A DNA stretch of 62,827 bases, filler included, from 6 parts of 6 records of this genome joined end to end with filler, not necessarily neighbours in it, one strand, 5' to 3'; positions 28,252 through 62,827 are shown, counted from the whole stretch's first letter. Notes: generated from the letters alone by a model not told the origin. Translations and numbers: made by a program.

Positions 28252-28290
28252 GCAGGCTCCCATGGATCTGAGGGCCTGCAGAATAATCTA

Positions 28291-28309: not shown

Positions 28310-28336
28310 GTGTGCCTGGCAATGTATGGCGTGCTG

Positions 28337-38983: not shown

Positions 38984-39420
38984 TCACGAACTCACGAACT
39001 CACGAACTCACAATGTCACTCGCGAACTCACTCACTCACGAAGTCACAATGTCACTCGCGAACTCACTCACAGGCAGGCTCCGCGCTCACAGACTCTCCC
39101 ACTCACAACAACCTCACTCGCGCCCTCACTCATGAACTCACTAAGAACTCACTCATGAACTCCCTCCCTCGTGAACGAACTCACTCGCGTAGGAACCCTT
39201 TCACGCGCGCACTCAACACTCACAAACTCCCGAGCTCACGAACGCACTCACACACTCACTCACAGGCTCACTCACATTCTTATTCACTTCAACATGAAGT
39301 CCCGCGAAGACCCACGCTCGCTCACTGACGAAGTCACTTGCTCACGAAGTCACTGGCTCACTCACAAACGAACTCACTCGCTCGCTCACCGACAAATGCA
39401 CTCCCGAACTCGCTTCGCTT
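38984..39420. repeat. Degenerate CTCA/CTCACGAA satellite with an embedded 36-bp tandem duplication
   Basis: ctcacgaa repeated at the start, tcacaatgtcactcgcgaactcactcac twice, then dense ctca/ctcg units. Confidence 0.85.
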
Positions 39421-39778
39421 CTTATTAAAATAAAGAAGGAGACGAGAGACCGCTTTGTTCTCGTTCATTTCTTTCTGGGTGTGTGTGTGTGTGTGGTTGT
39501 CTGTGTGTGTGCGAGAGAGTTTGGAATCTTGGTGAATGCTTCACAAGTGCGTTCCCTGCTGGAGGGTGGGCGACGTACCGCCCGAGTTTAGCGCGGGGAA
39601 GGGAATGCCTGTTGTTTGATTTCCTCCGCTGTTACAGAGCTGTACCGGGTCACTTTTGAAATCCCACTTCTGCTTCGTCTTCTTCTTGTTCTTCGTCGTC
39701 ACTTTATCTTGTAGTCTGGTTTCTGCTGGGGGAGGGGAGGGATTAGGCGACGTTCATTTGCATTCGACGCATTTGATA

Positions 39779-42700
39779 ATGGATCGCACTGCGAGCGAGC
39801 GGACGTCGGGTGGGGCCTCTTCTGAGAAGAGCGGAGAAGTTGTTGGAGAGGAATCCAATTTCAAGAGGGTTGTCCAGACATCCAAGTCGATCCAGGAACC
39901 CCAGTTCAGTGCGCGGCACTCCACTCTGGGGGCAAACTCTGACGACAGTAGCGGCGATGAGTCGGAGGTCAACGTTGTGTTGGGAAGAGGTGGCAGTATT
40001 GCAGGCTCCGGCACTGGCGACCAGGACTTGCACACTCCGGGTGGAACCCTTGATGGACTCTCGGATTTGAATTTATTCGACGAACCTGGAGCTGACCGCG
40101 GCCCCAGAGCGTGCGTCAATACATGGTGGCTGTTGGCTGGCTGGCTGGCTGACGGTCACCACAAGCGATTTTGACGTGCATCATCGTCACATTTTTCTGC
40201 TGGCACCCTCCCTTTTCAGGTACGAAGGTATATTTCACACAGTGTCCGGCAGGCCACGACCGATGAAAAAGCGAGTAGAATGGGCGGCGAATGGAAAAGG
40301 CAGTTCTTGCAGCATCTGCCTCAAAAAATTCATGATGACTGGCGCGAGGAAGCGTACGTGTCAGCAGCCATGGTTTCCTGCAGGAAGTGTGCAATCCCTG
40401 TCATTGTTCCCTTTATTCGCGCATGCCCACTGACGCTTCATGTGGCTTTGCAGGTACTTTTTGCCGCAAATGTGGTCGAAGCGTGTGCTCTAGCGCTTCT
40501 TGTTCTTCGAAAAACTTTTGGGCGCTAATGGACCACGTGCCTCAACGCACTTGTGTCACTTGTGTTGCTGCAGCCTTCAAGGACCATGAGGTATAGTTAT
40601 GGATTCTCATCAAAGAGTTGTCGATGAAGGTGACATTCGACGGTGACTGAATATTCGGCGATGCTGTTACGTTGCACATGCAGGATCTCTGCTCAGGAAA
40701 TAGTCAGCGGCGACCAGTTCTGATCATTCCTGGATTTGCATCCAGTGTGTTGGAGGTGCACAAGTCAGAGTCGAAAAAGTCTTGGGAGGGTCACGCCGTG
40801 TGGGTAAGAATTGAGGAGCTTCTGCGGAAGGCACTTGACAAAGCAAACACCATTAAGCACAACAAATCGTCGAGGAAATCGCGCGCTGCTTCAATGGGGT
40901 TAATTGGCTCGTCAAGCTCTCAATCGTCGTCCTCCAGTTCGCTGCTTTCTCGTGGTGACAGCTCGGAGTCATTTTTAAATTTGTCGCCCCCGCCGTCCCC
41001 GACACGTCGCGTTGACTCGAGCCTTAACTTTGATCTCGACCATGTAATTCTTTTTGTTGCTGTTGCTTGATGTGCCCCCCTCATCGACAATTGAAGCTGC
41101 CCGACATTGTAATGGATTGGCTTGCACGTGTGGCACTTGAAAAACGTCTAGGTCTTGACGCCGGAAAGTCCAGAGGCTGCCAGCATTGAGAAGCAAAAGA
41201 TTGAAGCAGCTGCGACCACCCTCCAGCGACGATTTCGTCAAATCGCAACTGCCAAACGTGAAGCGGTACACTTTTCTGGAATTTTTTTTGTGCCTGTTGC
41301 GGGCGGTTCATTGGAACAATGTTGTTGAGATGCATTGCCTTGATTTGTAGATGCAAGAAGCAATTTTAAAGGCTCGCAAGGAGGCCGAGGCTGAAGGCAA
41401 TGTGCTGACAGGTGCGTCTTGCTTGCTGACCATTGCCATCGCACTGCCTCATTATTTCAGTTGGTGCTCAACAGATTGCTGTTCAATTTTATTTTTTCTA
41501 TACACCACAATCAAAGAGGAAACGGAGGCTGCAATTGCTGCTTCTGCTGTATTTGGCACGCCTACTTCCACCCCCAGTGCCCAAAGTTCTCGCGTGAAAA
41601 AGAAGCGTTTTCGTCGAAGCGGCGGAACGGCGGGAAGTCCAATTTCTTCTGGGACCGGTTCGTCCTGTGCTGTGGCTTCCACCGATGGAAACTACGGGAA
41701 TAATGTCGCTGCAATGTTCGCCTGCCTTGCTGTTTTCTTTATCATTTTTTTTGACGATTTTCTTTTTCATCGCTGATTGTTTTGCAGGCGCGACACGATC
41801 ACTTGGGGGCTCAAGGCACGCACGAGCCCGTGCTCCAACTATCAAGCGAAAGGAAACTTTCACTGTGGAGCGTGAATCCACCCAAGACTATTTGGCAACA
41901 GCTCATCCATTGGTGCGGCACTTGACGCTGGGGCGGGATGGAGTTTCTGATCCACCCGGCATCAAAGTTCGTGCACGGAAAGGTCTTGATGCAGTTATGT
42001 ACGTCCCAGCAAGCATTTCCGTGGTCTGGCAGTATGCATATGACGCACATGAATTTGATCCTTTTGACGTGTCTGGTTAGGTACCTTTCAAATGCTTCTG
42101 TGATGAAAAGTCGGACTTTTGTGTTCGGGAAGCTTGTGGAGCACCTGTTTGATCTTGGATATACTCCTTGGAATGGCTCCAATGTTGGTACGCACCCCGT
42201 GCTGTGTTGTGAATCACGGAATTGCTTTTTTGCTGTGACGATGAAAAACTGTCTTATTCATGAGTCGGAACTTTTCACCGCCAGCTCAATTGAAGAACGG
42301 GCCAAAATCTCCGCGTCGGAAGCGCGGTATTTTGTCAATCTCGCTGCACAAGCACCAGCATCATCATGCCAGTTCTGACAAATTGAATCCAGCTCCAGTC
42401 ATCACGGCTGCACCTTACGACTGGCGCATTTCGCCGCGGCATTTAGAGGCCCGAGACGGCTACTTCTCAGACTTGAAGCGGAAAATTGAATGCCTTTACA
42501 AGTCCGCGTTGATTTTATTATGCTTTCCGCTTTTCTGTGAGGGAACTCGAAATGTCGTCATCGTTGCTTTGAAAAACCCTCCCCAATTCATCTCTGTGGT
42601 TGCCGAATGGTATGATTCATTCCATTCCCACCCTACGCTGGGCATGTATTGCGTAGGTACCGCGGTCCTGTCGTTCTGTTGGCACACTCCATGGGCTGCA

Positions 42701-45700
42701 TGGTGACATATTACTTTTTACGGTGGGTTTTATGGCACGAACTGCGCAATATGGTCGTTCGGGCCATTTCCGGGCCAGAAATTAACCCTATCCACCCCGA
42801 GAGAACTGTGCCAACAGCAGCCGCTGATATTGCTACACCCGCTCCTGCACCTAAAGCTACAACTGAGCTACCTGGCGGAAGCAAACGAGCTCCAACACGC
42901 CAACTTAGCGGACTGGTGCTAGCCGCTCACAAAAAGCAACTTCAGGAAGCTGAAACACAGCTAACAATCTTGAAACAGGTACTCAGCTTGGGTTGGCTTG
43001 GCATGTTGGCTTTTTTTGGATGGAAACGCTCACTTCGGTTTGCCTGTGTACTTCGTCGCGCTGTTGGATTTGTAAATTCATGCCACAATGTCGCAAAAGT
43101 CACGACTTGCCGCTGAGCAAAAGGTACAAGCTGTGGAGGAGGCAATTGAAAAGTTTGAAGTCCGATGTTTGGGGTTTATCCCTGAAACTACGGCCGGTTC
43201 TGGTGATCGTCAAGGGTACATATTTCAAGCTGATGGACCGAAAGGCTCCGGCTTCTATCGCGACACATCTGATATGCTTCCGGCACTCAAAAAGGTGCCG
43301 AAGAGAGGGTTCCCACGATGATTCCGTTTGCAAGGACACCTCGAATTTTTTGCTGATAATTTTGTGTTTGCATGCTTGCGTTCGAAGGCGCAAAGAAAAT
43401 TGATGAGGGCACGTTCTTCTGAAGAGGATGCCAATAACGCAGTCACAAAGCTACGCGCTCTCGTGATGCAGGATGCGGTTGCAGTTGCTGTCCGCCGAAA
43501 GCACACTTCCAAGGCACAACTTATGAAAAAAACTAATCGTGGCCGTCGAGCGCTTCTCGCATTTCACCGCAAAGACATCCATCCATCGCACGTATTAGTT
43601 TGTGCCAACCCTTGATATTGACATTATAACCGCTGTGCATGTGTACTCGTCATTTGATGGTATGTGTCTGTGTCTGTGTGTGTATGAAACTAGCTACCAA
43701 CGTGTTCATTTGGAAAAAGCATTGAAATTAGCAGCAACAATTGGCGTGGAGCTCTCCCCTGACACTGTGGAAATGGTTCGGTTACAGGAGGATCCAGAGG
43801 CCCTCGAGGCACTGGTGAGTGGCGGAACACACTGCTTAGGGGACCTGGCTATGGTTCCGTGTTCTCGGTGGTAGATGGGTCGAGCACCTGAAACATCATT
43901 CTGACTGCAGCTATTTCAGTCTGTGTTTTTGTTGGTCGTTGAATGAAGGCGGATGTGCTTGACGAAGGGATCCGGAGTCCCGCCAAGGTGGTGTTGAGCA
44001 TGTTCAGGCGCAACATCAACCAAGTTGTCCGTGAGCTGTTGCCGAAAGTGGTGGAGCTACATGGCGGGATGTCCAGTCAGTGGGCACGGAAGCACATTGA
44101 AATCTTTACCTCACTCGGAGGACCTTTTACTGGCACAAGCAAGGTTTGTTGTTTGATGTGGATGTCATGCCATGTGGGTGATGCTCGTTCCGGTTTAACA
44201 GTATTATTTTTCGAGTTCGAGAAGCAAAACACAGGCTAACCCCGCGTTTTGAATGGGCCCTTTAATTCAGGCGCTGCGCATGTCTGTGGATGGTACTGGC
44301 ATGATCCTTGAAAACTTTTTCTCCCGAAAAGAATCCTCACAGATTGTCCACTCTCTATCTGTAGCGCCATCTCTGTTTGCTGTACCAAGGGCTCTTAATG
44401 CTGTGCACTCTTTTGGGGCTATCAAAGTTTGTTCATTGTAACTGGAATATGTGGTGACCCTTGTGTTTGATAGAGTTCTGCTGGTACGCTGCGGTTGTCG
44501 CGAAATTCTCATATGTGCATGCTCTGCTGTTCTGACGATCATGCTACGTTTGCTCAGACCCATCAACATTCTAGTATTGATGCAAGTTATGATCGCAGAA
44601 AGGACGAGGACATGCTTGCGAGGAAATTAGTCCCATGGTATGTCAGTTGGTCATTTGCAATCTTTGGTGGCGACAACACTTGGGCAGATTTTGTCGCTAA
44701 GTATTCCTCATTGTGGAAGGTATGAGCACAATGACGTCGAAGCTGGTAGCTGCACTGTGGAACGTGATTTTGTGATGGAAGAAGTATATCGAATGGTGTC
44801 AACACATCGTCTTATCGATGAGACTGAAGCTGTGTGCGTGTCGTGCGCGAAAATCTTACACCAGCATCCTATTAATTTGACCCAATCCATGATGTGCTGC
44901 GTGAATCCATGAAGTGCTCATGACTGGCGTCAATGTTCCATTCCCTGTCCAGGCTAAACTCCCAACAATCCTCTATGTCTTCATCCCTACGCAGTGCCGG
45001 GCAAGAGGACAAGCAAGACGACAGCTCAGCTGAATTGGACGCACAAGCTGAGCAAGAGGAAATGCAGCATTGTCCTGCATGTGGGTTATTGAACCGGCGT
45101 CCGGCCAACGGCAATCCAGTTGCAACTTGCAGTGGTGTTCGTGGCTGTCACAGTCGGTTCAATTGGAAGCATGGACATTCGCATGCGCTGGAGGATGGCA
45201 TCCCGCTTGAGGTTGATGATGTCGAAGCAGATGCTGGGGCCGAACACAGTAATGTGTTTTCAGAAGGAAGCCCTTCTGATACATTACTCACAAAGCCGGG
45301 GCTCTCCATACAACGCCTCTTTCGACACCTTCATCATATGTTTGGCCCTGCCTACCTAAATCGAAAAGCAAAGGTATGCACGGCATCACAAGCACTTGCA
45401 CTGGCCAAAATTTTGTCCGTCAACAAATGTCGTTTTCGAACGAATCTTTGAGTACTTTGACTCACTGAAGTTGCTATAAACGGCAGATTCGAACTCTCTT
45501 CGACGAGTATCTTAATCGAGCCAAGAAGCTTCCGTCGAGCCTGCCTGTATTTCTGGTGCGGGACACAAGCATAGTTCGTGTGGCGTTTTCAAACGTGTTC
45601 TTACACCATTCGTTCACAGAAGCACTCGACCCTGGCTTGTCCGAGGCCATGCGGCGCGGGCTTGATTGGTACGAACAAAAATATTGTGCTAGTGACGCGT

Positions 45701-48700
45701 TATGTTATTGGTTTCATCAACACGGAACTTCCTACACCAGTTTGTTCGACAGATTATGTTCGTATGGTATTGCTTTTATGAATGTACTGATGCTTCGTCT
45801 TGCAGGTATGTTGTAGTGCAAGTGCAATACAAACCAACGGTGCGAGATCGCAATGGGAAACGCCCAGCTCCGGCCCAAAAAGCAAAATCTATTGTAACCA
45901 GAGTACAGAATATGGACGAAGTGATGCGAAGTCGAATTTTGAACCGCGCACGTGAAGTGCTAAACAAGCACAATTGCGAAGGGATGGAAAGGCCGAGTTT
46001 TGAATCACTTGAAACAATCTTGTTGCAGAACTTTGAATCGAAGGATCTTGCACGCCATCGATACGCGCTTAGGACTTTTCTTGAGGGTCCGGAAGATGTG
46101 GGGGTCGGTCCCGAAGTACGTTTTTTTTGTTTGTTGTCATTTTCTTGGCTGCGTGCACCATCTCTTACCCGTATTGGATAAATGGTCGCTTTTGTTGTCG
46201 CAAGCTGCTGACTTGTGTTGCTTTATGTATATGTTCATAATTTGAAGTGCAATTCCAAAGAACCCCCGCGTCGTATCCGCTTGCCCCTTGCCCCGGTGGA
46301 CTTTTCGCTTGCTCCAGTGTCAGTTGCCTTGGAGGTTGACTCAGATTTGGACGACTTTTTCTTGTCCCGTGCTCGCTATGTGAACACGCCTCAATCGTTG
46401 TTTGAGATTCAGGTGCGCGCCTGCTTTGTGAATGGGTGTGGGGTTTCGATTGCATGTGTTTACTTCCTTTGTCAACTTAATACGTGAGTTGCAATGTTGG
46501 TGCATGTGGGCAGGTGGCCACAAAGTGGCACAACTTTTGGCGTGCCAAGCGCAGGCGTCCAGATGGAACGGTTGAACCTTTTTTGAAAGTTTCTGCTGAT
46601 GGCCAGTCTTATGATATTGCGTCCATGGACTTTGTTCAACTGCCAGCAGACTTTCAAGCGCTTACTTTTGCAACCACAAGTTTTGTATGTTGTTGCTTCT
46701 TGAGTGCTGTGATCTCGTCACTGCGTCTTTGGTTATCTATATTTGACCGTCTGAATTATGGGCTATCGATACGCTTTGCTTGGCGGTGTTCGCCCTCACC
46801 CAGTTAACTCATGGCGTTGCTCACCGCCCATTTCAAGGTTTGTCCAGCCATTGAGAAGCAAAGTGAAGATTTTTCCCGGAAGAAAGTGCACGCTCGTGAC
46901 CCGTTCGATCTTCCTCCTCGACGTGACGTGTCAAACCGACATGCCTCTGATTCGTCCTCAACGGGTCCAGGCTGGAGCGTGTACGATGTTGGAAAAGTGC
47001 GACGGGGATCTTTCCTTGATCGGGTGGCTGAAATGATCCATGTGGGCTACATGCGGCGCCGAAACTTCATTGGCTACAACAACGAGACGATTCCTGTTTG
47101 GAAGGATTTGACTGATCAGGTGCGTTTCTCTTGTTGGTTGCGCATCTAATACTCGTGCTCTTGCAGTCATGCTCGGTGCGTTAGAAAGAATGTTCACATG
47201 TTGTCTCGGTGGTTTTGCGTGCGATGGTTGGTCTCTTGACCGCAGGAACGGCAAAATGATCTTGGCTTCGTTCTGATGGCCGTGGAAGTGTTTCTAGACT
47301 CTGATATGGCAGCCAAGAGACGAAAAAGCGCCACAGCTTCACAAGCTGCGGCAGCTTACCGCCGCCTCTACAAAACGGAGCTGAACATCGGCATCTATGC
47401 CTTCGCAGAGCTTGATGATGCACAAGTTCGTATCCCGAGACCCTGTGGCCGGTTTTTTTGTTGCAGTTGTAGTTGCCGTTGCGTTTTTTGCTGGAATACA
47501 ATTTTGTTGTTTTTGTTTGTTTTTGTGATGAAGTGTTTTGTGGAATCAGACACAGTCAGCAACGGTGTCAAGCTTGCTGAAACTGGCGCATCGCTGGGGA
47601 AATTTATCGACATGCCGACGCTCGTGAAGCGGCGTGAACAGGTGCGGTGGTGTTGACGTGTTTGCCCGGATAACTGCTTAGCTCCACCCTCGAGACTTTT
47701 TGATGCGGGCGTGATTTTTTTTGCGCGCGGTCGCTGGATCACTGTAAGGTTCGCAAGTCAAGGCGGAAAAGATATTTGCGGAAGCAATCACAAAAGCAGC
47801 AATTGCTTTCTAGGGGAGAAACTACAGCTCCTCTCTTTGGATCTGATGTCTTTAACGTTGACACTTCCGGCGAGGTGGTTGACCTCTTTAATGGGTGGTT
47901 GGAGTGCCCTCATCATTTGAACATTCCGTCGGTTCGTGTGCAGCCCGCGCAGCCAACCACATGGCACCATTTTTGCCCGGGACTTCGGTAGGTTGACTAT
48001 CTCGGGTTTGCTAACGTGCTAGGTTCCAACAGAGGACCCTATAGAACTGATGGGCGACGACTTCAAAACAACCATCGTTGACCTGGACCTTCAAGTTGTC
48101 GCATGCGCTATGGATGTCGTTGCCGCTGTGGTATGTATGTCGTTTGCTCACCATTGTGTCCTTGCCTCCCGTTTGAGTGGCATAGGATGCAACGTGATGA
48201 CTTGCGTGCACTTTTTAATGTTGGGTTCTCTTCGGGCCTCATGGACAAGGTACGATTCCAGCGGCGCTTTCGACAAATCCTTGACTTGCGCGCTGCTGCC
48301 CGAGAACTCGGGGAACCATTTGGGGATGCACTCAGCCAACGAAGGGTACACTTACATCCGCGGCAAGATTTTGCTATTTATACACATGACGAAGACGTCA
48401 GTATCCAGAACGACAACGCTAACGACAAGAGCAAGGTCAGTGCTGTGGCAGGCGGCTTTGGTGTCTCGTCCCCCAACGCAGATGAGGAGCTTCAAGGAGA
48501 CGCCACAGTGAAGCCAGGGGCTGCACACGACACAACGCCTCCTCGGACAGTGTGTAGTGTCCATCTTCTCGTGCAATGGCGGCGCCATGCCTTTAAAGTA
48601 CCGTCAGCAGATCGTGTTGTTCCCGCGTTGGACTATGGAACAGCCGTCTCCATTCGCAACGACCCTTTAGCGCGCGTTGCTGGACTTCTTCAGGTTTGTA

Positions 48701-51700
48701 TGCTCGAGCTTCTGTCAGTACGGTGTGAATTTAAGCAGAAGACTTGTTTTCAGACCCGGTTTTCTGTTGGATATTGCACTTTAAAATACCAGGCCTTTGC
48801 CCGCTTTGATAAAGATAACGACAACAGCATTAGTGCAAAAGAAATGCTTGACGTGTTGGCGGCAGAGGGAATTCAAATGGATGACGTTCGTGCTCAAGAA
48901 ATTGTTGATAGCCTTGACCACGATGGCAGTGGTGCGTTCCTCAAGCCACCTTCTTGTCGCAACCTGTCCGACCTGTTGGTGCGGTTGTCGATGTAACAAA
49001 AACGTGGGATTCCGTGTTCTTGCGGGGAACATTCTAGGGACGATCGACATAGGAGAGTTCATGCGTTGGCGAGACAAAGAGGCTGGCGCGCCACTTGCAG
49101 GCGCTGTCGGTCACGAGCGGCTTGATGAGGTTGACGAAGAGGACAACGAAAGACAGGCCCTACTGAATGCTTTGGTGCCATTGCACATACTACGCAGTAG
49201 CTTTGGCCCCCACACGTTACGAAATGTCAAGAGTCCGCAGAGTGGTTTTTCCAAAAACCTGAAACGTGGATTCGACGACGCAAAACCGTTGGGTCCATCG
49301 CGGTCAAAGTCGACTGCATCCACGTCTCCGATTTCCTCTCAGCCTTCGTTGGCATCGCTTCGTCCTTCCAAGTCAGCTGCATCTTTGATAAGTTCAACTG
49401 CAGCCGCAGTAGCCGAAGCTGATGCGAGGGCACAAGCCGAAGTTGAAGCCAAACTTGCTGGGCAGCACAAGTACATCGGGGTACGCGGTTTCGGTTTTTG
49501 ATGCTTGCGTATTTGTGTGCACAAGCTTTTGTCGTTTTTTTTTTTTTCATGGCACATGTGTGGTATCCACAGGTTCCAGCGTCAGCAGTTCTTGAATTCC
49601 AAGGCGGGCATGACCAAGTGAAGTTCTTTGATTACTTCAAGCAAGACGAGAAGCTCTTTGACGAGGCGAGCCGAGTTGAAGGTATGATGGTCTCCGATGA
49701 CCGCGGAAGCTTAGGGTTGTGGTGCAACTGTTCTGTGCAAGTGGGAAAAACACTCCTGTCCGGGATCACACTCTGCTCAGTTTGTTCATCCCTGACATTC
49801 ATATTTGCGTTTTTCAACTGCCCGGCACCCATCATCAGGCACATGTTTTACGGTTCCTCCTGCTTGTGACCGGATGCTCAGTATCTTTGGCACGGGTAAG
49901 GTCCTTTGATTGAGACGTGTTGCGTTTGATCGTTTGTGGGGTTGCTTGTTTGCGGCTTGGACTCACACACACAAGAAATGGCGTCGTGGACGGTTTATTT
50001 AAGCTCACACGCACTGTGAATTGCAGGGCTACCAACTGAACGCCATGCCTTTTACAAGCGAAAGCCATGCATTTCTTCCACGGATGGCGACTATGTCGCC
50101 TTACAGCCTGACCGAGAGGCGCGCATGGATGGATTCATGCACCGAGGCGGTGTAGCCTACGAAACCGCCGACACTATGCAAGTGCGGTGCGATACCGGCG
50201 ATACGGTGCGCACTTGTGGCGATGGAACTGTTCCGTATTTGTCGTTGAGGTGGCCATCAACCTGGCAACGGAGCCGCACATGGCGTAAACAACGTCGACA
50301 CATGCTCAGCACTCACCTTGGCATGTTGTATGGCACCGATGCTGCCAGCGAGCCTGCTGGCCGTGGTTGTGACAAAAGTACATCAGGTTGCCTTCGTGCG
50401 GATAGCCAAACATCTTCTCATTCGGACAGCACGAATTCGTTTGAGAGCATTGCCAGAATGGAATCTGCGCAGCTGTCGCAAGCCGATTTTGAGGAAGCCT
50501 GCACAGTGGATACCATCGAGTTTCCAGGACTGGATCATAGAGAAATGTTGGGTTCGTGATTGCGCTTTGGGAATTTGCGAAGCGGAACGCATGGTCCCAC
50601 CCACTGGTAATCTGGCGCCAATATGCAGTAAACAACCAACCGCTCGAATCACTTTTGCGGTGCGTGTAGGCTCCAAGGTTCTCAAGCGCTCGCTGGCTGC
50701 TCTTGTCAATCCAACGTTGCAGATCCATGTTGGACGGCTGCACAGCTATTGGAACACTCTCACAAAAGCTATTGGGGGAGACTCAGGAATGCACCAGTAC
50801 GTGTCTGGCTACGACCGCGTACAGCTTATCATGCGCTTGTTTGGGTTGCGTGTGTGGAACGCCATTGAGCCGGGCTGATGCAGCTGACAATGCCTTTTGC
50901 TTCAGGCACAGAGGAACACGATTGAAGGACATGAAATGGTTTTGGGAACTTGAGTTGTTGCCAAAAGACGCAAGCGTATCGCTTGGCATTAGTGACAAGT
51001 CTGGAGCTGACTACAGCCCTCCACCAAATTATGTTCTTCGTACTGATGCTCGATACGTAATGGCTCAACCTGCCGCTGGATCAGTGCAGAATGATGGCCA
51101 GCAAGGCCATGAGTACGAGCAGTGCGATTCAGCATCCCCCACAAATCCAGGCAGTCCTCGGAATCGGCGTCAAAGTGTTTGGTCAGCCCTTGGCTCTGGA
51201 GTGAGTGGCGAAGGGTCAAACGATGCCGAGGCTGGCGTTCGCCGGTAAGTTCGGGTGACCGTAACTAAGTGTCCGTGCCGTTCCTGAACCACATTGATGT
51301 CCTGATCCCCGTTCACCGTTTTCATCAATATTTGTGTCCCCGTACCCTGCAGGTACACGAGCCTGGACGGCGATAACAAACAACTTTCTGAGTGTGATTT
51401 CGCGCATCTGTGCGCGTTTGACCCGAGCCTTCCTTTGTCCGACTTCGTGGGCGTGTGCGGAAAACTCAAACTGAAGCACTGCTCACATAAAGTCTACGCC
51501 ACATTCATCCTTTCATCAAAACAGGTAGCCTTCCTCAGCAATTGTAGGCGTGTGCTGTTGTGTCGCTTTCGAATTGTTGTTTCGTCCTTCATGTGAATAC
51601 TCCCGACTGTGTCGCCTTACGATAGTCGTCGAATGCGTATTTTTATTGCTCAGATCAATCAATTCGCCGGTTCGGCACTCCAACTACAGTTGAGTGGAGG

Positions 51701-52092
51701 CGCTGGATTGTTGCAGGTTGAATGCAACGTGCACTTTAGTGGCCAGTAAGTGTTTCCGCCAATCGGTGGCTGTCGTACATGCAATCGTATTTGTTCTAGC
51801 GTTTGGTTGCATTGCCAAATCAACCACATCCACTACAACCACATCGCGATTTCTTTATCGCGCGCTTTCCTCTTTGAATAGATACTCTAAAGAGAGAATG
51901 AGACTGATGGCAGACGATCCCCCAGAGCCACTTGATCAAGATTCCCATGGTTTTGGAGTTTTGGACGGGGAGATGACTTCAGAAGATGCACTGCAAGTCA
52001 TGCACGCTCTCGAGGGCAACCGTTCGGGCGCAGGGTTGAGTGGACGGCTCGAAGGTGTGGACGAAGATTCGGAGGATACGGAGGAAGACTGA
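39779..52092 (+). CDS. Giant multi-exon LCAT/PDAT-family phospholipid acyltransferase with FYVE-like, IQ, Zn-finger and EF-hand modules
   Basis: In order: CSICLKKF..CRKCGRSVC..CVTC; RPVLIIPGFASSVLE; DPPGIKVRARKGLDA; FGKLVEHLFDLGY; AAPYDWR..LEARDGYFSDLK; VVLLAHSMG (Ser 42688); WARKHIEIFTSLGGPFTG; an EF-hand pair; GDGTVPYLSL (Asp 50221); DHREML (His 50536). Same strand, with no clear intergenic break. Confidence 0.8.
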
Positions 52093-52323
52093 TTCCAATA
52101 CTAAATTCGCCAGACGTTTGTTTGGCTACTCCTGGCCTTTTCGATCCCAAGATTACTTTTGAAATTTTATTTTATTATCAAATCAAGTGAACACAAAAAA
52201 TAAAATCAATGTGTTTGGACCACTGGCAGCAACGCGCTTCTGCCGATCAATTGTGAATCGTATTATGGGGCGGAATAGGTGGAAGAACCTATGCATGTTC
52301 AAAACAAACCGGTTGAACATCGT

Positions 52324-53247
52324 CTACTTCCGTCGCTTTCGCTGCTGCTTGTTGACACTACCACTTGAGTGGCCGAAGTGCCGTGGGCCACGCTTCACGG
52401 GCACGGACCCTCCCCCAATGTGTGCATACCTTGCCACCATGTCTTCTGCAGACTCGACAGTGTCATCTTCCTCGCTTCCATTGACACCACCGGTACTTGT
52501 CCGCTGCTCTACAGTTGGGTTAAACCGACCAAAGCTTCGTCGAGCCAGACAAGGTTCACCCTCCTCGCACGCACCACGCTCTGTCGATTCCTCGCGGCCC
52601 ACCCGCTCGTCCACTGTGCATCGAATGACGACTGCACCCGTGGCCGACCCGGTGGCACCGTCCTGATTTGCAGCAGCAACTACTACCCCAGGTTGGAAAC
52701 GTGGTTTGGGAAGCCCTTCAACGACCCAATGCATCTCCTTCAACTTTTTCTGTTCCGCCCGGCGCAGCTCTTGCTGTTCCACGAGCGTGGCCTTTCGCGC
52801 CATGAACTTCAAGTTTCGCACCGACGAGCTGAGAGTCTTGGTCGCGGGCGACTTCGACTGCGCCTCCGCAAACGACCTCGCTGGTTTGGGCTCCGGCTCT
52901 GGCTCACGCTCAGTGCCAGCACTTTTCCGTTTCCTCCGTTGCTGGGCGAGCGTCCCTCCCTCGCCACGCAGTTTCCGGTTTTTTTCCAGCAAGGCCTGGG
53001 CCGCAGCCTCAAGATCGCCCTTCTTCAACTTGTGCAGCGACGACAAGTCCCGAGGGGCAGTCGTTGAGGAGATCCTCGGTGGCGCAGGCTCCCCGGGCTT
53101 CCACATACGGCCTCGAATGTCTTGACGGTGCCGCTGCTGCTGCTTCTGCTGCTGTTGCTGCTGCTGCTGCTTCTTCTTCTTCTGCTGCTGCTGCTTTTGT
53201 TGCTGCTTCTGCTTCAGTTTATGCTTGTTGTCCTTTTTGTCGCCCAT
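52324..53247 (-). CDS. MPP6: M-phase phosphoprotein 6 (nuclear exosome cofactor) with Q/K-rich N-terminal extension, single exon
   Basis: LSSSVRNLKFMARK, EMHWVV and ARRSFGRFNPTVE match the conserved MPP6 blocks (LS..L..MKFM, HW, GRxSFxxFNPxVE). Confidence 0.75.
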   Translation of the reverse strand: MGDKKDNKHKLKQKQQQKQQQQKKKKQQQQQQQQKQQQRHRQDIRGRMWKPGEPAPPRISSTTAPRDLSSLHKLKKGDLEAAAQALLEKNRKLRGEGGTLAQQRRKRKSAGTEREPEPEPKPARSFAEAQSKSPATKTLSSSVRNLKFMARKATLVEQQELRRAEQKKLKEMHWVVEGLPKPRFQPGVVVAAANQDGATGSATGAVVIRCTVDERVGREESTERGACEEGEPCLARRSFGRFNPTVEQRTSTGGVNGSEEDDTVESAEDMVARYAHIGGGSVPVKRGPRHFGHSSGSVNKQQRKRRK

Positions 53248-53324
53248 GTTTGAGCGAGCTTCTTTGGCGAATCGAGCAAGTCGAATGAATCTTTCTCCCG
53301 ACTTTCTTTTGAAGTTGCTTTCCG

Positions 53325-53424: not shown

Positions 53425-56229
53425 TATGACATGCTGGGCGAAGCCGCCCGCACCAGCGCCGATGCCGCTCGCTATTTCGAAGCCTATGCCAATGCCATCG
53501 CCCGCCTGGCGCCCAATGCCAAACCCGGCGGCGTGCGCGACAATCCCGGCATATCGGTCAAGCTTTCGGCGCTGCACCCGCGCTATGAGTTCGCGCAACG
53601 CGAACGCGTCATGACCGAACTGGTTGATCTGACTCGTAAATTGGCTGTTGCTGCCAGGAACGCCAATATCGGTTTCAACATCGATGCCGAAGAAGCCGAC
53701 CGGCTCGATCTGTCGCTCGACATCATTGCTGAAGTCCTCGCTACACCCGAATTGGCGGGCTGGGATGGCTTTGGTGTGGTTGTGCAGGCCTATGGCAAGC
53801 GCGTCCTGCCGCTGATCGACTGGCTCGATGCCACCGCCAGGGCGCTAGATCGCCGCATCATGGTGCGACTGGTCAAGGGCGCCTATTGGGACGCCGAGAT
53901 CAAGCGCGCCCAGGTCCAGGGTCTGCCCGACTATCCGGTCTTTACCCGCAAGGCCTCAACCGACATCAGCTATATCGCTGCAGCGCGCAAGCTGTTTGCC
54001 GCCAAGAATATCTATCCCCAGTTCGCCACCCACAACGCCCATACCGCTGCCGCCGTGCTGCATCTGGCCGAGGAAATCGGGCAGGGCACCGATACCTTCG
54101 AATTCCAGCGTCTGCACGGCATGGGTGAACGGCTGCAGGATGTGCTGCGCACCACTGCGGGCACCCGCACCCGCATCTATGCCCCCGTCGGTGCCCACAA
54201 GGATTTGCTGGCCTATCTGGTTCGCCGCCTGCTTGAAAACGGCGCCAATGGCTCTTTTGTCTATCAGATTGCCGATGAGGACATTCCGGCCGCCGCCGTT
54301 GCCGAAGACCCCATTGCCAAGACACTGGCGCTGGGCGATGCCATCCCCAACCCCGTCATTCCCGCGCCATCGGCCATTTTTGGCGAGCGCGTCAATTCGG
54401 CTGGCCTTGATCTGACCGACCCCGTCGCCTTCCCGGCCATGCAGACCGCCCGCGATGCCTTCGCGACCACCAAATGGCACGCGACCCCGCTGACCGCGCC
54501 CCTGCGGAAAGAGGCCGGGACGCCTGTGAACATGATCAACCCGGCCAGACACACCGACACCATCGGCAGCGTCACCGATGCCAGCACCGATGACGTCGCC
54601 GCCGCCATCGTCGCTGCAGTCGCCGCCAACTGGTCCCAGACCCCTGTGGGCATCCGCACTGCCGCCCTGCGCACCGCGGCTGACCTCTACGAAACCCACA
54701 GCGCCGAATTGTTCGCCCTGCTGGCCCGCGAGGCCGGCAAGTCCTGGGCCGACGCGATTGCCGAGGTGCGCGAAGCCGTCGACTTCCTGCGTTACTATGC
54801 CGAACAGGCCGAACTGCTGCCGCTGGCCAGCGCCCGCGGCCCCATCGCTGCCATCTCACCCTGGAACTTCCCGTTGGCCATTTTCACCGGCCAGATCGCA
54901 GCTGCTTTGGTTGCCGGCAATCCTGTGCTGGCCAAGCCCGCCCCGCAAACCCCGCTAATCGCCTTCCGCGCGGTCCAGCTGCTGCATGAGGCCGGCATTC
55001 CGGCCGATGCGCTGCAATTGCTTCCCGGTGCGGGTGAGGTGGGCACCGCACTCACCTCCAACCCGGCCATTGCCGGCGTGGTCTTTACCGGCTCGCTGCC
55101 CACCGCGCGCCGTATTGATCGGGCCATGGCGACCCATCTGCCTGCCACCGCGCCGCTTGTGGCGGAAACGGGCGGCCTTAATGCCATGATCGTCGACTCC
55201 ACTGCACTGCCCGAACAGGCCGTGCGCGACATCATCGCATCGGCCTTCCAGTCGGCCGGCCAGCGCTGTTCGGCGCTGCGCATTCTCTACCTGCAGGAAG
55301 ATGCTGCCGAACGCACCATCGAGATGCTCAAGGGCGCCATGGACGAGCTGACGCTGGGCGATCCCTGGACGCTTGCCAACGATATAGGTCCCGTCATCGA
55401 CGAGCCCGCTCGGGCAAAAATCCAAGCGCACATCGACACTTACACCAAGGCGGGCAAGTTGATTCATCACTTGAAGGCACCGGTCGGCGGCACCTATGTC
55501 GCGCCTGCCGTGCTCAAGGTGAATGGCATTGCTGAGATCGCCGAGGAAATCTTCGGGCCGGTGCTGCATATCGCCACCTTTAAGGCCGACCAGATCGATG
55601 CAGTCATCGCCGACATCAACGCCTCGGGCTATGGCCTGACCTTCGGTATGCACACCCGCATCTCCTCGCGCGTCACGGCCGTGTCCCGTGCCGTCCGGGC
55701 CGGCAATATCTATATCAACCGCAATCAGATCGGTGCCGTGGTTGGCTCCCAGCCTTTCGGTGGCGAAGGGCTCTCGGGCACCGGGCCCAAGGCGGGCGGG
55801 CCGCACTATGTGCAGCGCTTCACCACGGCGCCGGGCCCCACCGATAGCGCCCCGGTGGTGCTGCCGGGCCCGACCGGAGAGAGCAACATCATGCATTCGG
55901 CTCCGCGCGGTCGCGTGCTTTGCCTGGGCCCCACTCCGGCCGATCAGCAGGCCCAGGCCGTCATCTGCGCCAGCCTGGGCAATACTGCCCTTCTGGCCAA
56001 GCTTGATCTTGAAGGCCTGCGTGACAGCGACAGCTTCGATGCCGTCGCCTATTTCGCTGAGGACCCCGATCTGGGCCGTATTCGCATCGCGCTGAGCGAA
56101 CGCGAGGGCGCCCTCATTCCGCTGCTGACTTCTCCTGACGATGCCAGCCGCCTGCTGCTCGAACGCCATGTGTGTATCGACACCACGGCCGCTGGCGGCA
56201 ATGCCTCACTCATGTCCCAGGCAGGCTGA
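53425..56229 (+). CDS. putA: Bifunctional proline dehydrogenase / P5C dehydrogenase, 5'-truncated
   Basis: YDMLGEAA, ISVKLSALHPRY, NIDAEE, VRLVKGAYWD, FATHN, FQRLHGMG, YLVRRLLENGAN, ETGG, SAGQRCSA, DTTAAGGNASL. Confidence 0.96.
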   Translation, partial: YDMLGEAARTSADAARYFEAYANAIARLAPNAKPGGVRDNPGISVKLSALHPRYEFAQRERVMTELVDLTRKLAVAARNANIGFNIDAEEADRLDLSLDIIAEVLATPELAGWDGFGVVVQAYGKRVLPLIDWLDATARALDRRIMVRLVKGAYWDAEIKRAQVQGLPDYPVFTRKASTDISYIAAARKLFAAKNIYPQFATHNAHTAAAVLHLAEEIGQGTDTFEFQRLHGMGERLQDVLRTTAGTRTRIYAPVGAHKDLLAYLVRRLLENGANGSFVYQIADEDIPAAAVAEDPIAKTLALGDAIPNPVIPAPSAIFGERVNSAGLDLTDPVAFPAMQTARDAFATTKWHATPLTAPLRKEAGTPVNMINPARHTDTIGSVTDASTDDVAAAIVAAVAANWSQTPVGIRTAALRTAADLYETHSAELFALLAREAGKSWADAIAEVREAVDFLRYYAEQAELLPLASARGPIAAISPWNFPLAIFTGQIAAALVAGNPVLAKPAPQTPLIAFRAVQLLHEAGIPADALQLLPGAGEVGTALTSNPAIAGVVFTGSLPTARRIDRAMATHLPATAPLVAETGGLNAMIVDSTALPEQAVRDIIASAFQSAGQRCSALRILYLQEDAAERTIEMLKGAMDELTLGDPWTLANDIGPVIDEPARAKIQAHIDTYTKAGKLIHHLKAPVGGTYVAPAVLKVNGIAEIAEEIFGPVLHIATFKADQIDAVIADINASGYGLTFGMHTRISSRVTAVSRAVRAGNIYINRNQIGAVVGSQPFGGEGLSGTGPKAGGPHYVQRFTTAPGPTDSAPVVLPGPTGESNIMHSAPRGRVLCLGPTPADQQAQAVICASLGNTALLAKLDLEGLRDSDSFDAVAYFAEDPDLGRIRIALSEREGALIPLLTSPDDASRLLLERHVCIDTTAAGGNASLMSQAG

Positions 56230-56241
56230 CGTCAATTCGAC

Positions 56242-56270
56242 CGCACCGCTCCCTGAAAGGGAGGGGTGCG
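56242..56270 (+). terminator. GC-rich hairpin after putA (possible terminator, no U-tract)
   Basis: CGCACCGCTCCCT-GAA-AGGGAGGGGTGCG. Confidence 0.5.
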
Positions 56271-56413
56271 CATGACGATTGTCAGGCCGCGTCCTCACAT
56301 TTTGGCGGCGGCGCGTGGAAGCACTTCAGTGCGCGAGCCCCTCTTTTATTGGCAAAATCTGGGGGTGCCAGCCCCATAGCGGCGCCTTGACGACTTTTTT
56401 GATATGACGAGGA

Positions 56414-56439
56414 TGAACTCGGCGCATATCAAATGCGTT
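56414..56439 (+). promoter_or_regulatory. Putative EcfG/sigmaT (general stress response) promoter
   Basis: TGAAC-N17-CGTT versus consensus GGAAC-N16/17-CGTT, about 50 bp upstream of the LOV kinase start. Confidence 0.55.
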
Positions 56440-56489
56440 GGTTGATTTGGCGATGCTGGGATTTCCCTGCTGCAGACAAAGGGAATTCC

Positions 56490-57974
56490 ATGACCAACAC
56501 CAATGAAGAGCGGCGGATTGAGTTCGAAATTCAGCGCGAGGGTCGCGGTGGAACGGACCCGTTCGCCGCTGCCGTGCGCGCCACGCGCATGCCCATGCTG
56601 ATCACCGATCCGCGCCAGCCAGACAACCCGATCGTGTTCGTGAATGACGCCTTCGCCAGACTGACGGGCTACTCACGCGAGGAGACACTGGGGCGCAATT
56701 GCCGGTTTCTGCAGGGGGCAGGCACCAATGCACAGGACGTCACGCGGATGCGTGAGGCAATCGCGCGTCGTGTGCCCATTGAGCTGGATCTGCTGAATTA
56801 CCGCAAGGACGGCACCACGTTCTGGAACCGGCTGCTGGTATCGCCCGTCTTCAATGAAGGCGAACTCAGCTTCTATTTCGCATCGCAGTTCGACATCACG
56901 CCAGAGCGTGAGAGGCTGGTCCGTGTTGCCCAGGACCGCGACGCTCTGGAGGGCGAGGTATCGCGCCGCGTCAGCGATCTGACCGCGTCCGAGGACCGGT
57001 TGAGATTCACGCTTGCAGCCGGCCGACTGGGGGCCTGGACCCTCGATCTAAGCGAGCAGAGGCTCGTCGCGTCAGGTCCATGCAAGGCCAATTTCGGCCG
57101 CGAGGCCTCGGACACCTTCACCTATCAGGACCTGCTGGCGGCCATTGTGCTCGAAGACATCGAACACTGGCGCCATGCCTTCCAGCAGGCTCTGGCAGGC
57201 AGTGGTGATCTGGAAGTCGATTATCGAATTCGTACCCCGTCTGGCGAACTGCGCTGGATCGAGGTTCGCGCCCAGACTCGCTTTGATGCTGACGGTAAAC
57301 CCATCTCGATGGCTGGCGTGTCGCAGGACATTACGGCCAGAAAGCAGGCGGAAAACCACCGAGACCTGCTCACCAAGGAAATGAGCCACCGCGTAAAGAA
57401 CACCTTGGCCACCGTTCAGTCCATTGTTGGACAGTCCCTGCGCAGTGCCGATGTCTCCCCCGACGTAGCCAGCACCATCACGCAGCGCCTCCAGGCACTC
57501 GCCGGCGCGCACGATGTGTTGACCGATCGCGGTTGGGCACAGGCGCGCCTCGCCGACATCGTTGCCTCGGCCACCGCGCCTTTCGATAGTGGTGGGTCCA
57601 CGCGCATCCATGCGGGCGGTGACGAAGTCGAAGTCTCTTCGCGTGCGGCAACAGCCATTGCGCTTGCCATGCATGAGCTGGCGACCAACGCGGTGAAATA
57701 CGGCGCACTGTCCAGCGATACCGGTGATGTCACCATCAACTGGACAATTGATGGCGGCAAGTTCGAGTTGGTCTGGACCGAGAGCGGCGGGCCACCCGTC
57801 GCCAGTCCCACGCGGCGCGGCTTCGGATCGCGCATGATCGAGCGCGTCCTGTCAGCAAGCATCGAAGGCAATGCCGAAATCGACTATCGCGCAGCTGGTA
57901 TCGTTGCGGTGCTTCGGACCGATCTGGAACACCTTATTGAGCCCACCAGCGCCGAAAGGGGCCGTGACTACTGA
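56490..57974 (+). CDS. Blue-light sensor LOV-PAS-HWE histidine kinase
   Basis: DNPIVFVNDAF..GRNCRFLQG with the photoactive Cys, LNYRKDG, ASQ; a second PAS; EMSHRVKN, HELATNAVKYGALS, WTESGGP. Confidence 0.93.
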   Translation: MTNTNEERRIEFEIQREGRGGTDPFAAAVRATRMPMLITDPRQPDNPIVFVNDAFARLTGYSREETLGRNCRFLQGAGTNAQDVTRMREAIARRVPIELDLLNYRKDGTTFWNRLLVSPVFNEGELSFYFASQFDITPERERLVRVAQDRDALEGEVSRRVSDLTASEDRLRFTLAAGRLGAWTLDLSEQRLVASGPCKANFGREASDTFTYQDLLAAIVLEDIEHWRHAFQQALAGSGDLEVDYRIRTPSGELRWIEVRAQTRFDADGKPISMAGVSQDITARKQAENHRDLLTKEMSHRVKNTLATVQSIVGQSLRSADVSPDVASTITQRLQALAGAHDVLTDRGWAQARLADIVASATAPFDSGGSTRIHAGGDEVEVSSRAATAIALAMHELATNAVKYGALSSDTGDVTINWTIDGGKFELVWTESGGPPVASPTRRGFGSRMIERVLSASIEGNAEIDYRAAGIVAVLRTDLEHLIEPTSAERGRDY

Positions 57975-58106
57975 TCCCGTGCGAGGCGCACTGGCTCTGC
58001 GCGCACTTTGGCTAATCACGGAATGTCTATCGGAAAAATCCTGACTACTGCCAAACGCACGATGCCCTAAACATGCCGGTCGGTTTCGAGCAGCGAAGCC
58101 ACCAGT

Positions 58107-58616
58107 TTGGAGCAGCACGTGTATTTTCCAGTTTCTAAGGCAGTCGCCGTTTTTCTGGTCGCCCTGGCCACCAGCGCTTGCGCGACAACATATGGGCCCA
58201 TGAGCGGCGATGGCGGCTACACTGATCTGCGCGTCTCCGAGTTTGTCCATCGCATCAACGTTCGGGGCAATGAAAACACCACGCGCGAAATGGTGCAGAA
58301 TTTCGCGCTGTTGCGCGCATCAGAACTGACACTTGCCAGCGGACGCGATCGCTTCGTGATTTTGGGCGAAGACATCGCAACGTCCTCCGCATTCAAGAGC
58401 TCCGGCGGCAGCGCGGCCACGAGTGACGGCTGGTTCGGTGGCACATCGACCAAATACGAGGCGCCCCAGATTGATACGATCACCAAGGCCGGCGGCACCA
58501 TGGTCATTGAAATTGTCGCCAAGGATGACCCGCGTCATGCATCCGCCTACGACGCCGGGCTGATCGACCGCCAGTTGCGCCCCGAACTCGAGCGGAACTG
58601 GTGGCAGTGGAACTAG
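58107..58616 (+). CDS. Lipoprotein, probably CC0125/CC1285 family; start uncertain
   Basis: Lipobox TSAC followed by ATTYGP..GGY, GN..T, FALLRASELTLASG..F. Confidence 0.7.
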   Translation: MEQHVYFPVSKAVAVFLVALATSACATTYGPMSGDGGYTDLRVSEFVHRINVRGNENTTREMVQNFALLRASELTLASGRDRFVILGEDIATSSAFKSSGGSAATSDGWFGGTSTKYEAPQIDTITKAGGTMVIEIVAKDDPRHASAYDAGLIDRQLRPELERNWWQWN

Positions 58617-58662
58617 CCACTTGACGCGCGTCCGGCGCTCCCCCGTCTTCATGCGCGCCCAG

Positions 58663-59388
58663 TCAGGCTTGGCACGGCTGATCGCGGACGGGAGACACGC
58701 CATCGTCAAAGGGCACAAATCGGCGCCGGAACGATGTCTCCGCGACAAATTCCGGGTTGCTGATCCGGTCCATGCGGAAATGCCGGAAGTCATCCCGCGC
58801 GGGATCCCACGCCACCAGATACCAAAGGGGTGGCAGGATCAGCATGGCTTGCGGCTCGACCATCCGGCTGGTGATCGCCCCTTTCGCATCGCGGTACTGA
58901 AACCGCAGGTGTAGTTGTTCCAGAAATGCAGTCTCGAATGCAGGCAACAGGTCCGGGTCCATCTCGCCCAGATCCGAAATGTTCACCTGTGGCGAGAGGG
59001 GCCCGACATACAGGCAACCAAGAAACCGCCGCAGGTCGCGCACCTTGTCGGGGGGCAGGGCCTTCTCGAGCTTGGCGAGCCCGGCATCTGCCAGTCCCAG
59101 AAACGGCAGGCCACCAGCGGCCCGCATTGACGCAACGCTGATGAGCAACGCAAAGACCTCGGCCACCGACAGGCGGGCTGTGGTCTGAACCGATTGCGCA
59201 TCAAGTTGCAGGCCGCCCCCACGACCGGGTTCGGAATGGATGACGAAGCCCTCATCACGCAGCGCGCTGATATCGCGCAAAACCGTGCGTCTGGATGCGC
59301 CGACCTGCGCCGCCAGTTCGCCGATTGTCGAGGTGCCGTTGCGGCGAAGGCTGCGCACGATGGCGTCTAATCGGTGACGTAAGTTCAT
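58663..59388 (-). CDS. HTH_11-WYL transcriptional regulator (YafY-like)
   Basis: ELAAQVGASRRTVLRDISALR, G.GGG, RMVEP..WYLVAWD..RDDFRHFRMDRI; no WCX domain. Confidence 0.92.
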   Translation of the reverse strand: MNLRHRLDAIVRSLRRNGTSTIGELAAQVGASRRTVLRDISALRDEGFVIHSEPGRGGGLQLDAQSVQTTARLSVAEVFALLISVASMRAAGGLPFLGLADAGLAKLEKALPPDKVRDLRRFLGCLYVGPLSPQVNISDLGEMDPDLLPAFETAFLEQLHLRFQYRDAKGAITSRMVEPQAMLILPPLWYLVAWDPARDDFRHFRMDRISNPEFVAETSFRRRFVPFDDGVSPVRDQPCQA

Positions 59389-59405
59389 ATCGCCAGGTTA
59401 CGCTT

Positions 59406-59432
59406 CAATGGTGCCAGAATTTGGCACCATTG
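59406..59432. promoter_or_regulatory. Perfect 11-bp inverted repeat, putative WYL-regulator operator
   Basis: CAATGGTGCCA-gaatt-TGGCACCATTG, 17 bp from the WYL start codon in the divergent region. Confidence 0.75.
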
Positions 59433-59476
59433 GATTTTAGGCAGGCGCTGTAAACCTCAGCAAGGAGATTTCGAAA

Positions 59477-59572
59477 TTGCAGCGCACATCCATAGCCCTC
59501 TGCAGCAGGCATCATCTCAGGCTCAGCGCGACCTCTGACCAATCCCGCAAAGGGCAGGGAGGCGCACAATGA
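59477..59572 (+). CDS. 31-codon uORF or gene remnant, translationally coupled to the hydrolase
   Basis: SD AAGGAG at 59462, TTG start, and a stop overlapping the next start as ATGA. Confidence 0.4.
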   Translation: MQRTSIALCSRHHLRLSATSDQSRKGQGGAQ

Positions 59573-60525: not shown

Positions 60526-60544
60526 AGCCGAGCACAAACAAAGC

Positions 60545-60568
60545 AGCCCGCAGCATGTGCCGCGGGCT
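60545..60568. terminator. Hairpin between convergent genes
   Basis: AGCCCGC...GCGGGCT flanked by aaacaaag and tgttc. Confidence 0.55.
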
Positions 60569-60592
60569 TGTTCATTCCAGCCGCAGCAAGAC

Positions 60593-61084: not shown

Positions 61085-61160
61085 CAATATCGTCCTTGGG
61101 TCCTAAAATTCGTGCCCCGCAGGTCGCGCTTATTGCTGGGGGCGGGGGAGGCGGGTGTCG

Positions 61161-62734: not shown

Positions 62735-62827
62735 CACTTGCCCTCATTCTTGGGATCGAGCACGTCACGCAACCCGTCGCCGAGGAAGCAGAAGCCCAGG
62801 CTGACAATGATGATGGCAAAGCCCGGC
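62734..62827 (-). CDS. C-terminus of peptide ABC permease (DppC-like), partial
   Basis: PGFAIIIVSLGFCFLGDGLRDVLDPK*. Confidence 0.88.
   Translation of the reverse strand, partial: PGFAIIIVSLGFCFLGDGLRDVLDPKNEGK

Follow-up and report, generated by a model that had tools for sequence, protein, structure and literature searches.

Enzymes of the LCAT family are known as compact proteins that are secreted, luminal or membrane-anchored. LPLA2 and LCAT are secreted or lysosomal with an N-terminal signal peptide, and the PDATs of yeast and plants have an N-terminal transmembrane anchor; the protein described here has neither a leader nor such an anchor. Cytosolic PLA2 is a different catalytic family with a Ser-Asp dyad, of which this protein is no member. 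LPLA2 (PLA2G15, 4x90) and human LCAT share with it the alpha/beta-hydrolase core, the AHSMG nucleophile, the GDGTV Asp, the His and PYDWR, but they comprise only about 380-420 aa, their Ser-Asp spacing is 162-164 aa rather than 1,616, and they have no C2, EF, FYVE or RyR modules. The salt-bridge pair of human LCAT is D145/R147 (PMC5343412), and the LCAT cap bears a lid gating the active site (bioRxiv 10.1101/422725). The "LCAT2 homologs" of SAR algae descend from an ancestor in common with PDAT (Bagnato et al. 2017, PMC5343412); trimmed cores of PDAT and the PSAT/LCAT2 homologs were used in that study, the available part of which describes no inserted domains. AuPDAT of Aurantiochytrium sp. 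SD116, a 783-aa thraustochytrid protein that restores TAG synthesis in yeast, is likewise an LCAT-family protein of a heterotrophic stramenopile with no signal peptide or transmembrane segment; however, it has LCAT and PGAP1 domains only and was placed in the ER lumen by its authors (PMC10523756). AuPDAT probably belongs to the same group as the present protein. In the working model proposed below, the protein would also resemble group IV cytosolic PLA2 (PLA2G4D, PMC11621493), a cytosolic lipase/transacylase with a C2 domain and Ca2+-dependent membrane contact. A combination of FYVE and class-3 lipase in T. cruzi was set aside as a different family.

The window analysed, a stretch of 62,827 nt, consists of contigs strung together with N linkers. 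The gene sits on a 14.3-kb eukaryotic contig (38984-53324). Other contigs in the window are bacterial-looking. Positions 39779-52092 hold one gene with one reading frame, encoding a protein of 2,654 aa (P0003; Table 1). No stop codon occurs across its 39 exons, and its introns, 82-157 nt long, are of the GT-AG type in 37 cases and GC-AG in one (43588-43693). When contigs of run X1, treated as RNA on the basis of their GT..AG joints, were aligned to 39600-52400, one of 8,315 nt was found spliced over the whole gene with no mismatch in the eight displayed pieces. It displays 15 joints, 14 of which are GT..AG joints within the gene; together with 22 more that are undisplayed and two dropped at repeats, these make up the 38 introns of the gene model. 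The model was completed by demanding an open frame and an exact fit to the coordinates of the contig record, and it reproduces all eight record-coordinate anchors, the record stopping about 52 nt past the stop codon. Alternative splice paths had lower scores and were dropped. The predicted protein equals, letter for letter, EukProt EP00750 Incisomonas marina P019895 (INCI3647.3), an entry that may rest on related reads. The single transcript expected by the sequence-only reading is thus borne out by one spliced X1 contig and an identical EukProt model.

Independent support for a single gene came from L001, a 10,154-nt contig of a seawater metagenome, which encodes an orthologue covering aa 85-2628 in the same order with every module kept. 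The L001 model has 2,333 aa, 1,302 identical positions and five of 13 introns at common positions, and its last 1,113 codons lie in one unspliced ORF. Both genes have a convergent MPP6-like neighbour. Identity between the two proteins is 69-83% in the core pieces, 48-79% in the folded inserts and 8-38% in the low-complexity inserts; the higher identity of the core over the low-complexity inserts points to selection on the catalytic core.

Table 1. Features of the gene, all on the plus strand (positions in the window; identities are with the L001 orthologue)
Feature	Position	Strand	Residues (aa)	Details	Basis
Whole CDS	39779..52092	+	2,654 in all	39 exons, 38 introns	Spliced contig; EukProt identity
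FYVE-like zinc finger	40278..40572	+	131-195	8 Cys, RKRTFCR	Pfam FYVE E 1.2e-7; 58% identity
LCAT core piece 1	40693..40845	+	205-255	PVLIIPGF strand/loop	Relatives' profile; 78% identity
Insert 1	40846..41888	+	256-460	Low-complexity and basic; IQ-like LQRRFR at 41221-41256	31% identity
LCAT core piece 2	41889..42762	+	461-640	PYDWR (D578, R580); AHSMG with Ser616 (42688-42690)	Profile; 81-83% identity outside 531-570 loop
Insert 2	42763..43981	+	641-895	After nucleophile helix; GYxF..G..G.G.Y at 43214-43261	Motif scan; orthologue comparison
LCAT core piece 3	43982..44831	+	896-1065	GGPFTG strand and cap start	Profile E 2.9e-11; 69-72% identity
Cys/His cluster	45071..45187	+	1106-1144	Possible zinc site; absent in P0009	75% identity
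Cap insert	45544..48600	+	1226-1886	Eight conserved strand-like blocks; IQ-like FQRRFR at 48256-48291	Same position as C2 insert of P0063
RyR-type repeat pair (predicted)	46380..47302	+	about 1415-1595	Nested in cap insert	Orthologue model; local profile
EF-hand pair	48685..49066	+	1915-1973	Loops at 1923 and 1959	Pfam; calmodulin matches; motif scan
LCAT core piece 4	49469..50716	+	2108-2357	PP..IFGTG; Asp2232 (50221-50223); 60-aa insert; His2337 (50536-50538)	Profile; 76% identity outside insert
C-terminal C2-fold domain (predicted)	50708..51882	+	about 2355-2585	Long loops	Orthologue model aligned to C2 domains

Judged by its sequence, the protein is an LCAT-family (PF02450) hydrolase. Pfam LCAT matched it in three stretches with 113.9 bits against a cut-off of 21, and a profile from 19 relatives, with the protein itself excluded, matched all four core pieces in order (aa 201-631, 911-1063, 2145-2252 and 2323-2357) with 282 bits. 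The triad residues Ser616, Asp2232 and His2337 occur in the family motifs and in the family order and were aligned with the Ser, Asp and His of LPLA2 through profile A4; the Asp-x-Arg salt-bridge motif is present as well. The LCAT-family core with an intact triad proposed earlier is therefore upheld by Pfam and by the profile alignment to LPLA2. Its motifs were found in the order first reported, with APYDWR at 42410, the Ser codon at 42688, GGPFTG at 44117, the Asp codon at 50221 and the His codon at 50536; PVLIIPG is also present but starts at 40714, one codon later than the 40711 given before. The distance between Ser and Asp, put at about 7.5 kb, was measured as 7,533 bp, made up of 4,848 coding and 2,685 intronic. 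The Ser-Asp spacing of the protein compares with 1,493 aa in the orthologue and 162 in LPLA2, while the six smaller relatives in which both motifs occur have 350-855 aa and the partial P0088 has 512.

Whether such distant pieces could form one core was addressed by excising the four core pieces, cutting the inserts away and folding the pieces as separate chains. The pieces reassembled in the prediction with a score of 0.85, the best of three controls scoring 0.26; 51 of 78 solved pairs attained the score mark, as did 2 of 108 mismatched ones (eukaryotes, 39 of 65 versus 2 of 126). Contact agreement in these runs was at least 49% and partner pLDDT at least 48. The predicted interface includes S616, D2232 and H2337, the output giving no distances between them. 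The strand at aa 936-941 is predicted to pair with aa 2159-2164, and core piece 3 as a whole with aa 2157-2164. The four-piece prediction supports reassembly of the core with the inserts removed, and since the pieces were folded in this way, it does not prove reassembly for the full protein. The pass may also stem from likeness to the solved LPLA2 and LCAT. For P0063, a smaller relative, AlphaFold2 gave a model (pLDDT 48, shallow alignment) in which the core was unassembled, with an rmsd of about 25 A to 4x90.

Judged by hydropathy only, the protein has no N-terminal signal peptide, the maximum 19-aa value over the first 45 windows being -0.48. No N-terminal transmembrane anchor was seen either; the highest window (1.84, at aa 1751) contains three Asp. 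The protein would therefore be soluble, which agrees with the earlier proposal of a cytosolic rather than a secreted or membrane-anchored enzyme. Pfam FYVE gave 32.2 bits (cut-off 27.8) for the N-terminal finger, and all eight zinc-binding Cys are present. PI3P-binding FYVE domains have the consensus WxxD plus R(R/K)HHCR, the His pair of which binds PI3P. These canonical motifs are replaced by WAAN and RKRTFCR here and by WRGT and RKRTFCR in the orthologue. Because RKRTFCR stands for R(R/K)HHCR in both orthologues, recruitment to PI3P through this finger is unlikely. The FYVE-like element first noticed is thus retained as a zinc finger with eight Cys, while the membrane recruitment ascribed to it is weakened by the degenerate basic motif.

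The EF-hand pair of the sequence-only reading matched EF-hand_7 with 41.7 bits (Pfam cut-off 30), and both of its 12-residue loops are canonical, in this protein as in the orthologue, although the two proteins are only about half identical overall. Calmodulins dominated the matches of a PDB search with the whole protein. An EF pair is missing at the equivalent place in all five more distant relatives aligned (P0008, P0009, P0010, P0012 and P0016), so that EF-based Ca2+ sensing would be lineage-restricted. The other modules first listed are also present, but the list was incomplete, having overlooked a C-terminal C2 fold and an RyR-type repeat pair. Both are predicted largely from the AlphaFold2 model of the orthologue, which has a mean pLDDT of 42.6 and gave middling Z values. 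The C-terminal domain is predicted to have a C2 beta-sandwich fold: the majority of the 50 VIA rows show a C2 domain aligned to model range about 843-1044, led by the C2 of CEP120 with Z 7.7 (108 aa at rmsd 3.2), and cPLA2 gave Z 7.4. Neither Pfam C2 nor a two-sequence profile of the relatives' C-terminal C2 matched the protein, the Atlas gave no usable match for this domain, and no Ca2+-type Asp cluster was seen in it by eye. An idea formed by eye, that the domain could be SPRY, was dropped since structure alignment favours C2. For the RyR-type pair, predicted to be nested in the cap insert, VIA gave Z 6.6 to RyR3 4erv (rmsd 5.3 over 132 aa) on residues 17-188 of a low-confidence orthologue model. 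A local RyR profile (seven repeat units from five proteins) matched both halves (E 7e-23 and 3e-6), its seed P0020 possibly belonging to the same family. Pfam RyR (PF02026) matches the relatives P0119 and P0062, two of the five proteins in that profile, and did not match P0003 directly. Foldseek with the orthologue model (P0002) returned nothing at E 0.001, its RyR rows being weak, and NCBIfam matched none of three proteins.

When exon pieces were searched singly against Pfam, 25 of 30 had no family at E 0.1. The GYxF..G..G.G.Y motif and the Cys cluster noted before are both real and conserved in the orthologue (67% and 75%, respectively); these two and the IQ-like motifs had no Pfam match. 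Three IQ-like [FILV]QRxFR motifs lie at aa 345, 1185 and 1772, the pattern having been chosen post hoc. The IQ-like motif reported earlier is thus present and conserved in the orthologue, but neither the strict consensus IQxxxRGxxxR nor Pfam IQ was found anywhere in the protein, and a loose IQ pattern was not enriched (six seen against 3.1 expected, 8% of shuffles). The site of insert 1 is occupied by a C2 domain in the relatives P0089 and P0142. Insert 2 is absent from the smaller relatives, in which 35-48 aa separate the Ser from the next strand, compared with 327 here. Because relatives carry a C2 domain at the site of the cap insert, we infer that its conserved blocks could represent a C2 domain split by nested inserts. 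A profile test with hhalign was unsupportive, giving E 0.8 for the first strand and 11.6 for the joined blocks against 12.1 and 10.4 for the controls.

A search of 1.84 billion representatives with P0002 recovered fragments of the family itself (P0008-P0012, P0016) and, further off, LCATs with several domains. The latter include P0063 of Ichthyophonus hoferi (C1-C1-LCAT, with C2 in the cap insert), P0161/P0142 of Picozoa (ankyrin, C2, LCAT and IQ, the last by Pfam in P0142), P0089 (C2, EF, LCAT, DEP) and the partial P0088 (LCAT, DEP). Among 2,686 candidates of 865-2,755 aa at least six match the LCAT core, in a search that was incomplete, since P0003 itself was not returned; their precomputed labels give PF02450 in six, C2 in four, DEP in two and EF-hands in two. 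No other full-length relative was found among 7,998 candidates of 1,459-4,645 aa in a word-limited search. The smaller relatives of Ichthyosporea and Picozoa thus have modules of the C2, DEP, C1, IQ or EF kind in corresponding positions. P0063, P0161 and P0172 (the last two from Picozoa) and P0089/P0171/P0173, which are database models of uncharacterised proteins, resemble P0003 in that they lack a leader, are interrupted at the same two sites and have C2 in the cap insert; in contrast to it, C1, ankyrin and DEP replace FYVE, the RyR pair and the Cys cluster, and the nucleophile helix is not followed by an insert. In the Atlas, P0063 falls beside an LCAT cluster of 62 members (741 aa, diatoms being the commonest) with 0.97, well above the 0.78 for LPLA2-type clusters. 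By eye, labyrinthulid and diatom rows beside PSAT/PDAT in the 2017 alignment resemble the motifs of the group (Aker009890, Sagg006007, Alim003652, Fcyl015188, Pmul010227, Tpse003308 and others), and of the two rows for Aurantiochytrium limacinum in it, one is of the group kind (PMC5343412). The labyrinthulid and diatom cores apparently belong to the same group.

Based on these results, the suggestion of an undescribed system does not hold: the protein is one enzyme with several domains, from a known family and within a wider protist group, the apparent group cores are already in a published tree, and the sequence is in EukProt with no functional name. The architecture, on the other hand, was rightly called unrecognised, as no description of an LCAT with inserted C2, EF, FYVE or RyR domains was found in the open-access literature. 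Among the cases that the analysis brought up from this little-described protist group, the gene is the most extreme.

The reading we moderately favour is a soluble, membrane-docking phospholipid transacylase of the PDAT/PSAT kind, probably Ca2+-tuned, whose core would be closed from four distant pieces. One soluble polypeptide would form a normal LCAT alpha/beta-hydrolase from these pieces, with the inserts looped out at surface sites. By family chemistry, Ser616 would attack a phospholipid ester to give an acyl-enzyme, and the acyl group would be taken over either by water or, as in PDAT/PSAT, by an alcohol (diacylglycerol or sterol). From the anatomy of the protein, the enzyme would be cytosolic and meet membranes through its C2-fold domain or domains and basic inserts, rather than through FYVE and PI3P. 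Acting through the EF pair and the IQ-like helices, which the cap insert holds next to the C-terminal catalytic piece, Ca2+ could modulate docking or entry to the active site.

A good deal less probable is that the enzyme is active but has inserts that serve as scaffolding or were acquired by accretion, with catalysis free of Ca2+ control; this reading overlaps that of a plain phospholipase, given below. It would fit the variation of modules among relatives, the low complexity and poor conservation of several inserts, the degenerate FYVE and IQ motifs and the want of a Ca2+-type Asp cluster in the C-terminal C2; however, both EF loops have stayed canonical in two orthologues about half identical overall, and distant relatives repeatedly have IQ-like or Ca2+-type modules in the same cap insert, as P0142 does with a Pfam IQ. 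LPLA2, the nearest solved structure, is also a phospholipase, so the acceptor could be either an alcohol or water. The 19-relative profile matched nine PDB sequences, LPLA2 4x90 (E 1.6e-24) ahead of LCAT (2.9e-15), but these include no PDAT or PSAT structure and the rank of LPLA2 therefore gives no placement. An active, mainly cytosolic phospholipase A/lysophospholipase using water as acceptor, more like cPLA2 than PDAT, would agree with that match, with the work of plant LCAT1/3/4 in phospholipid catabolism (PMC5343412) and with the PLA2 and acyltransferase activities of TgLCAT and PbPL (PMC10513453). We consider it rather unlikely, the group motifs resembling, by eye, rows beside PSAT/PDAT in the 2017 alignment.

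Two shorter EukProt ORFs of the same gene (1,668 and 495 aa) have no Ser half, the longer beginning in intron 16 at 44513, and TgLCAT is proteolytically processed (PMC5830472). These facts, and the docking of the core pieces in trans in the prediction, would suit an enzyme of two chains, produced by proteolysis in an insert or by shorter transcripts for the Asp/His half alone. The X1 contig is full-length, though, and intron retention or incomplete assembly would account for the short ORFs, which makes this improbable. An artefact, whether a false fusion of several genes in assembly or annotation or an enzyme that is dead, is very improbable and largely refuted: although short-read contigs cannot prove a single molecule, 24 of 38 joints are undisplayed and EukProt may derive from the same reads, the frame is open throughout, the triad is conserved, and a separate seawater contig keeps the same order with its long unspliced end.

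The transacylase reading, if true, would add to the LCAT family a soluble branch with Ca2+- and membrane-sensing modules, so that in marine phagotrophs signalling would be tied to the production of TAG, steryl esters and lysolipids by acyl-CoA-independent remodelling. This may perhaps also hold in oil-producing diatoms and thraustochytrids, where the apparent group cores are annotated merely as PDAT or LCAT2. Automated annotation hides the enzyme, because the 1,668-aa cluster representative bears EF-hand labels only. The protein also represents an extreme test of insertion tolerance in an alpha/beta-hydrolase. More tentatively, and with somewhat less than even confidence, it could be the most elaborate member, with domains nested in domains, of an undescribed, widespread protist subfamily of Ca2+- and lipid-switched cytosolic "signalling" transacylases, which would carry C2, IQ, EF, C1, DEP and RyR modules at fixed surface sites and be convergent with animal cPLA2.

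The single intron with GC-AG borders among the 38 introns of the acyltransferase gene was accepted because the open frame and the coordinates of the transcript record require it. The record of this gene in X1, a sequencing run taken as RNA, starts near 39481, and a low-complexity tract rich in CTCACT lies 5' of the gene (38984-39410). In the orthologue on the seawater-metagenome contig L001, the final 1,113 codons (5346-8687) are without introns and all 13 introns lie upstream of them; the matching part of the window gene holds 17. A similar MPP6-like ORF occurs at the same position in L001 (8837-9643) as the neighbouring gene in the window.

Features of the acyltransferase locus
Feature	Window position	Strand	Remark
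GC-AG intron	43588-43693		sole one among 38 introns
MPP6-like gene	52324-53324	minus	Pfam MPP6, E 2.3e-10; convergent with acyltransferase gene

Two EukProt isoform ORFs, INCI3647.1 (1,668 aa, starting at 44513 within intron 16) and INCI3647.4 (495 aa, at 49874), both lack the Ser half of the acyltransferase. Of the two, INCI3647.1 serves as representative of its cluster, where its labels are EF-hands only.

RyR-type repeat pairs, like the one predicted in the cap insert, were also present in the unrelated proteins P0062, P0064, P0108 and P0119. The pair was fused behind an Mlo-like region in P0064 (Pfam Mlo, E 6.7e-7) and occurred in tandem copies in P0108, a protein of bacterial appearance. 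Within the eukaryotic assembly itself, two contigs (12325-29687 and 53425-62827) are gene-dense, without introns and bacterial in appearance, encoding dehydrogenases, an iron-uptake transporter, a proline-utilisation enzyme and a sensor kinase, as named by eye; they probably come from co-cultured bacteria.

A second X1 record matched the window gene in short stretches only (42416, 42435-42670 and 48609), with a depth of 94.2 at the joint. At one loose end a differing sequence runs into YDWR of the core motif, and the other carries a variant of the conserved motif 3' of the cap insert, resembling that of P0012, a fragment of a more distant relative. Since this is a single record aligned only in part, it is read as probably an expressed paralogue of the window gene with the same split architecture.
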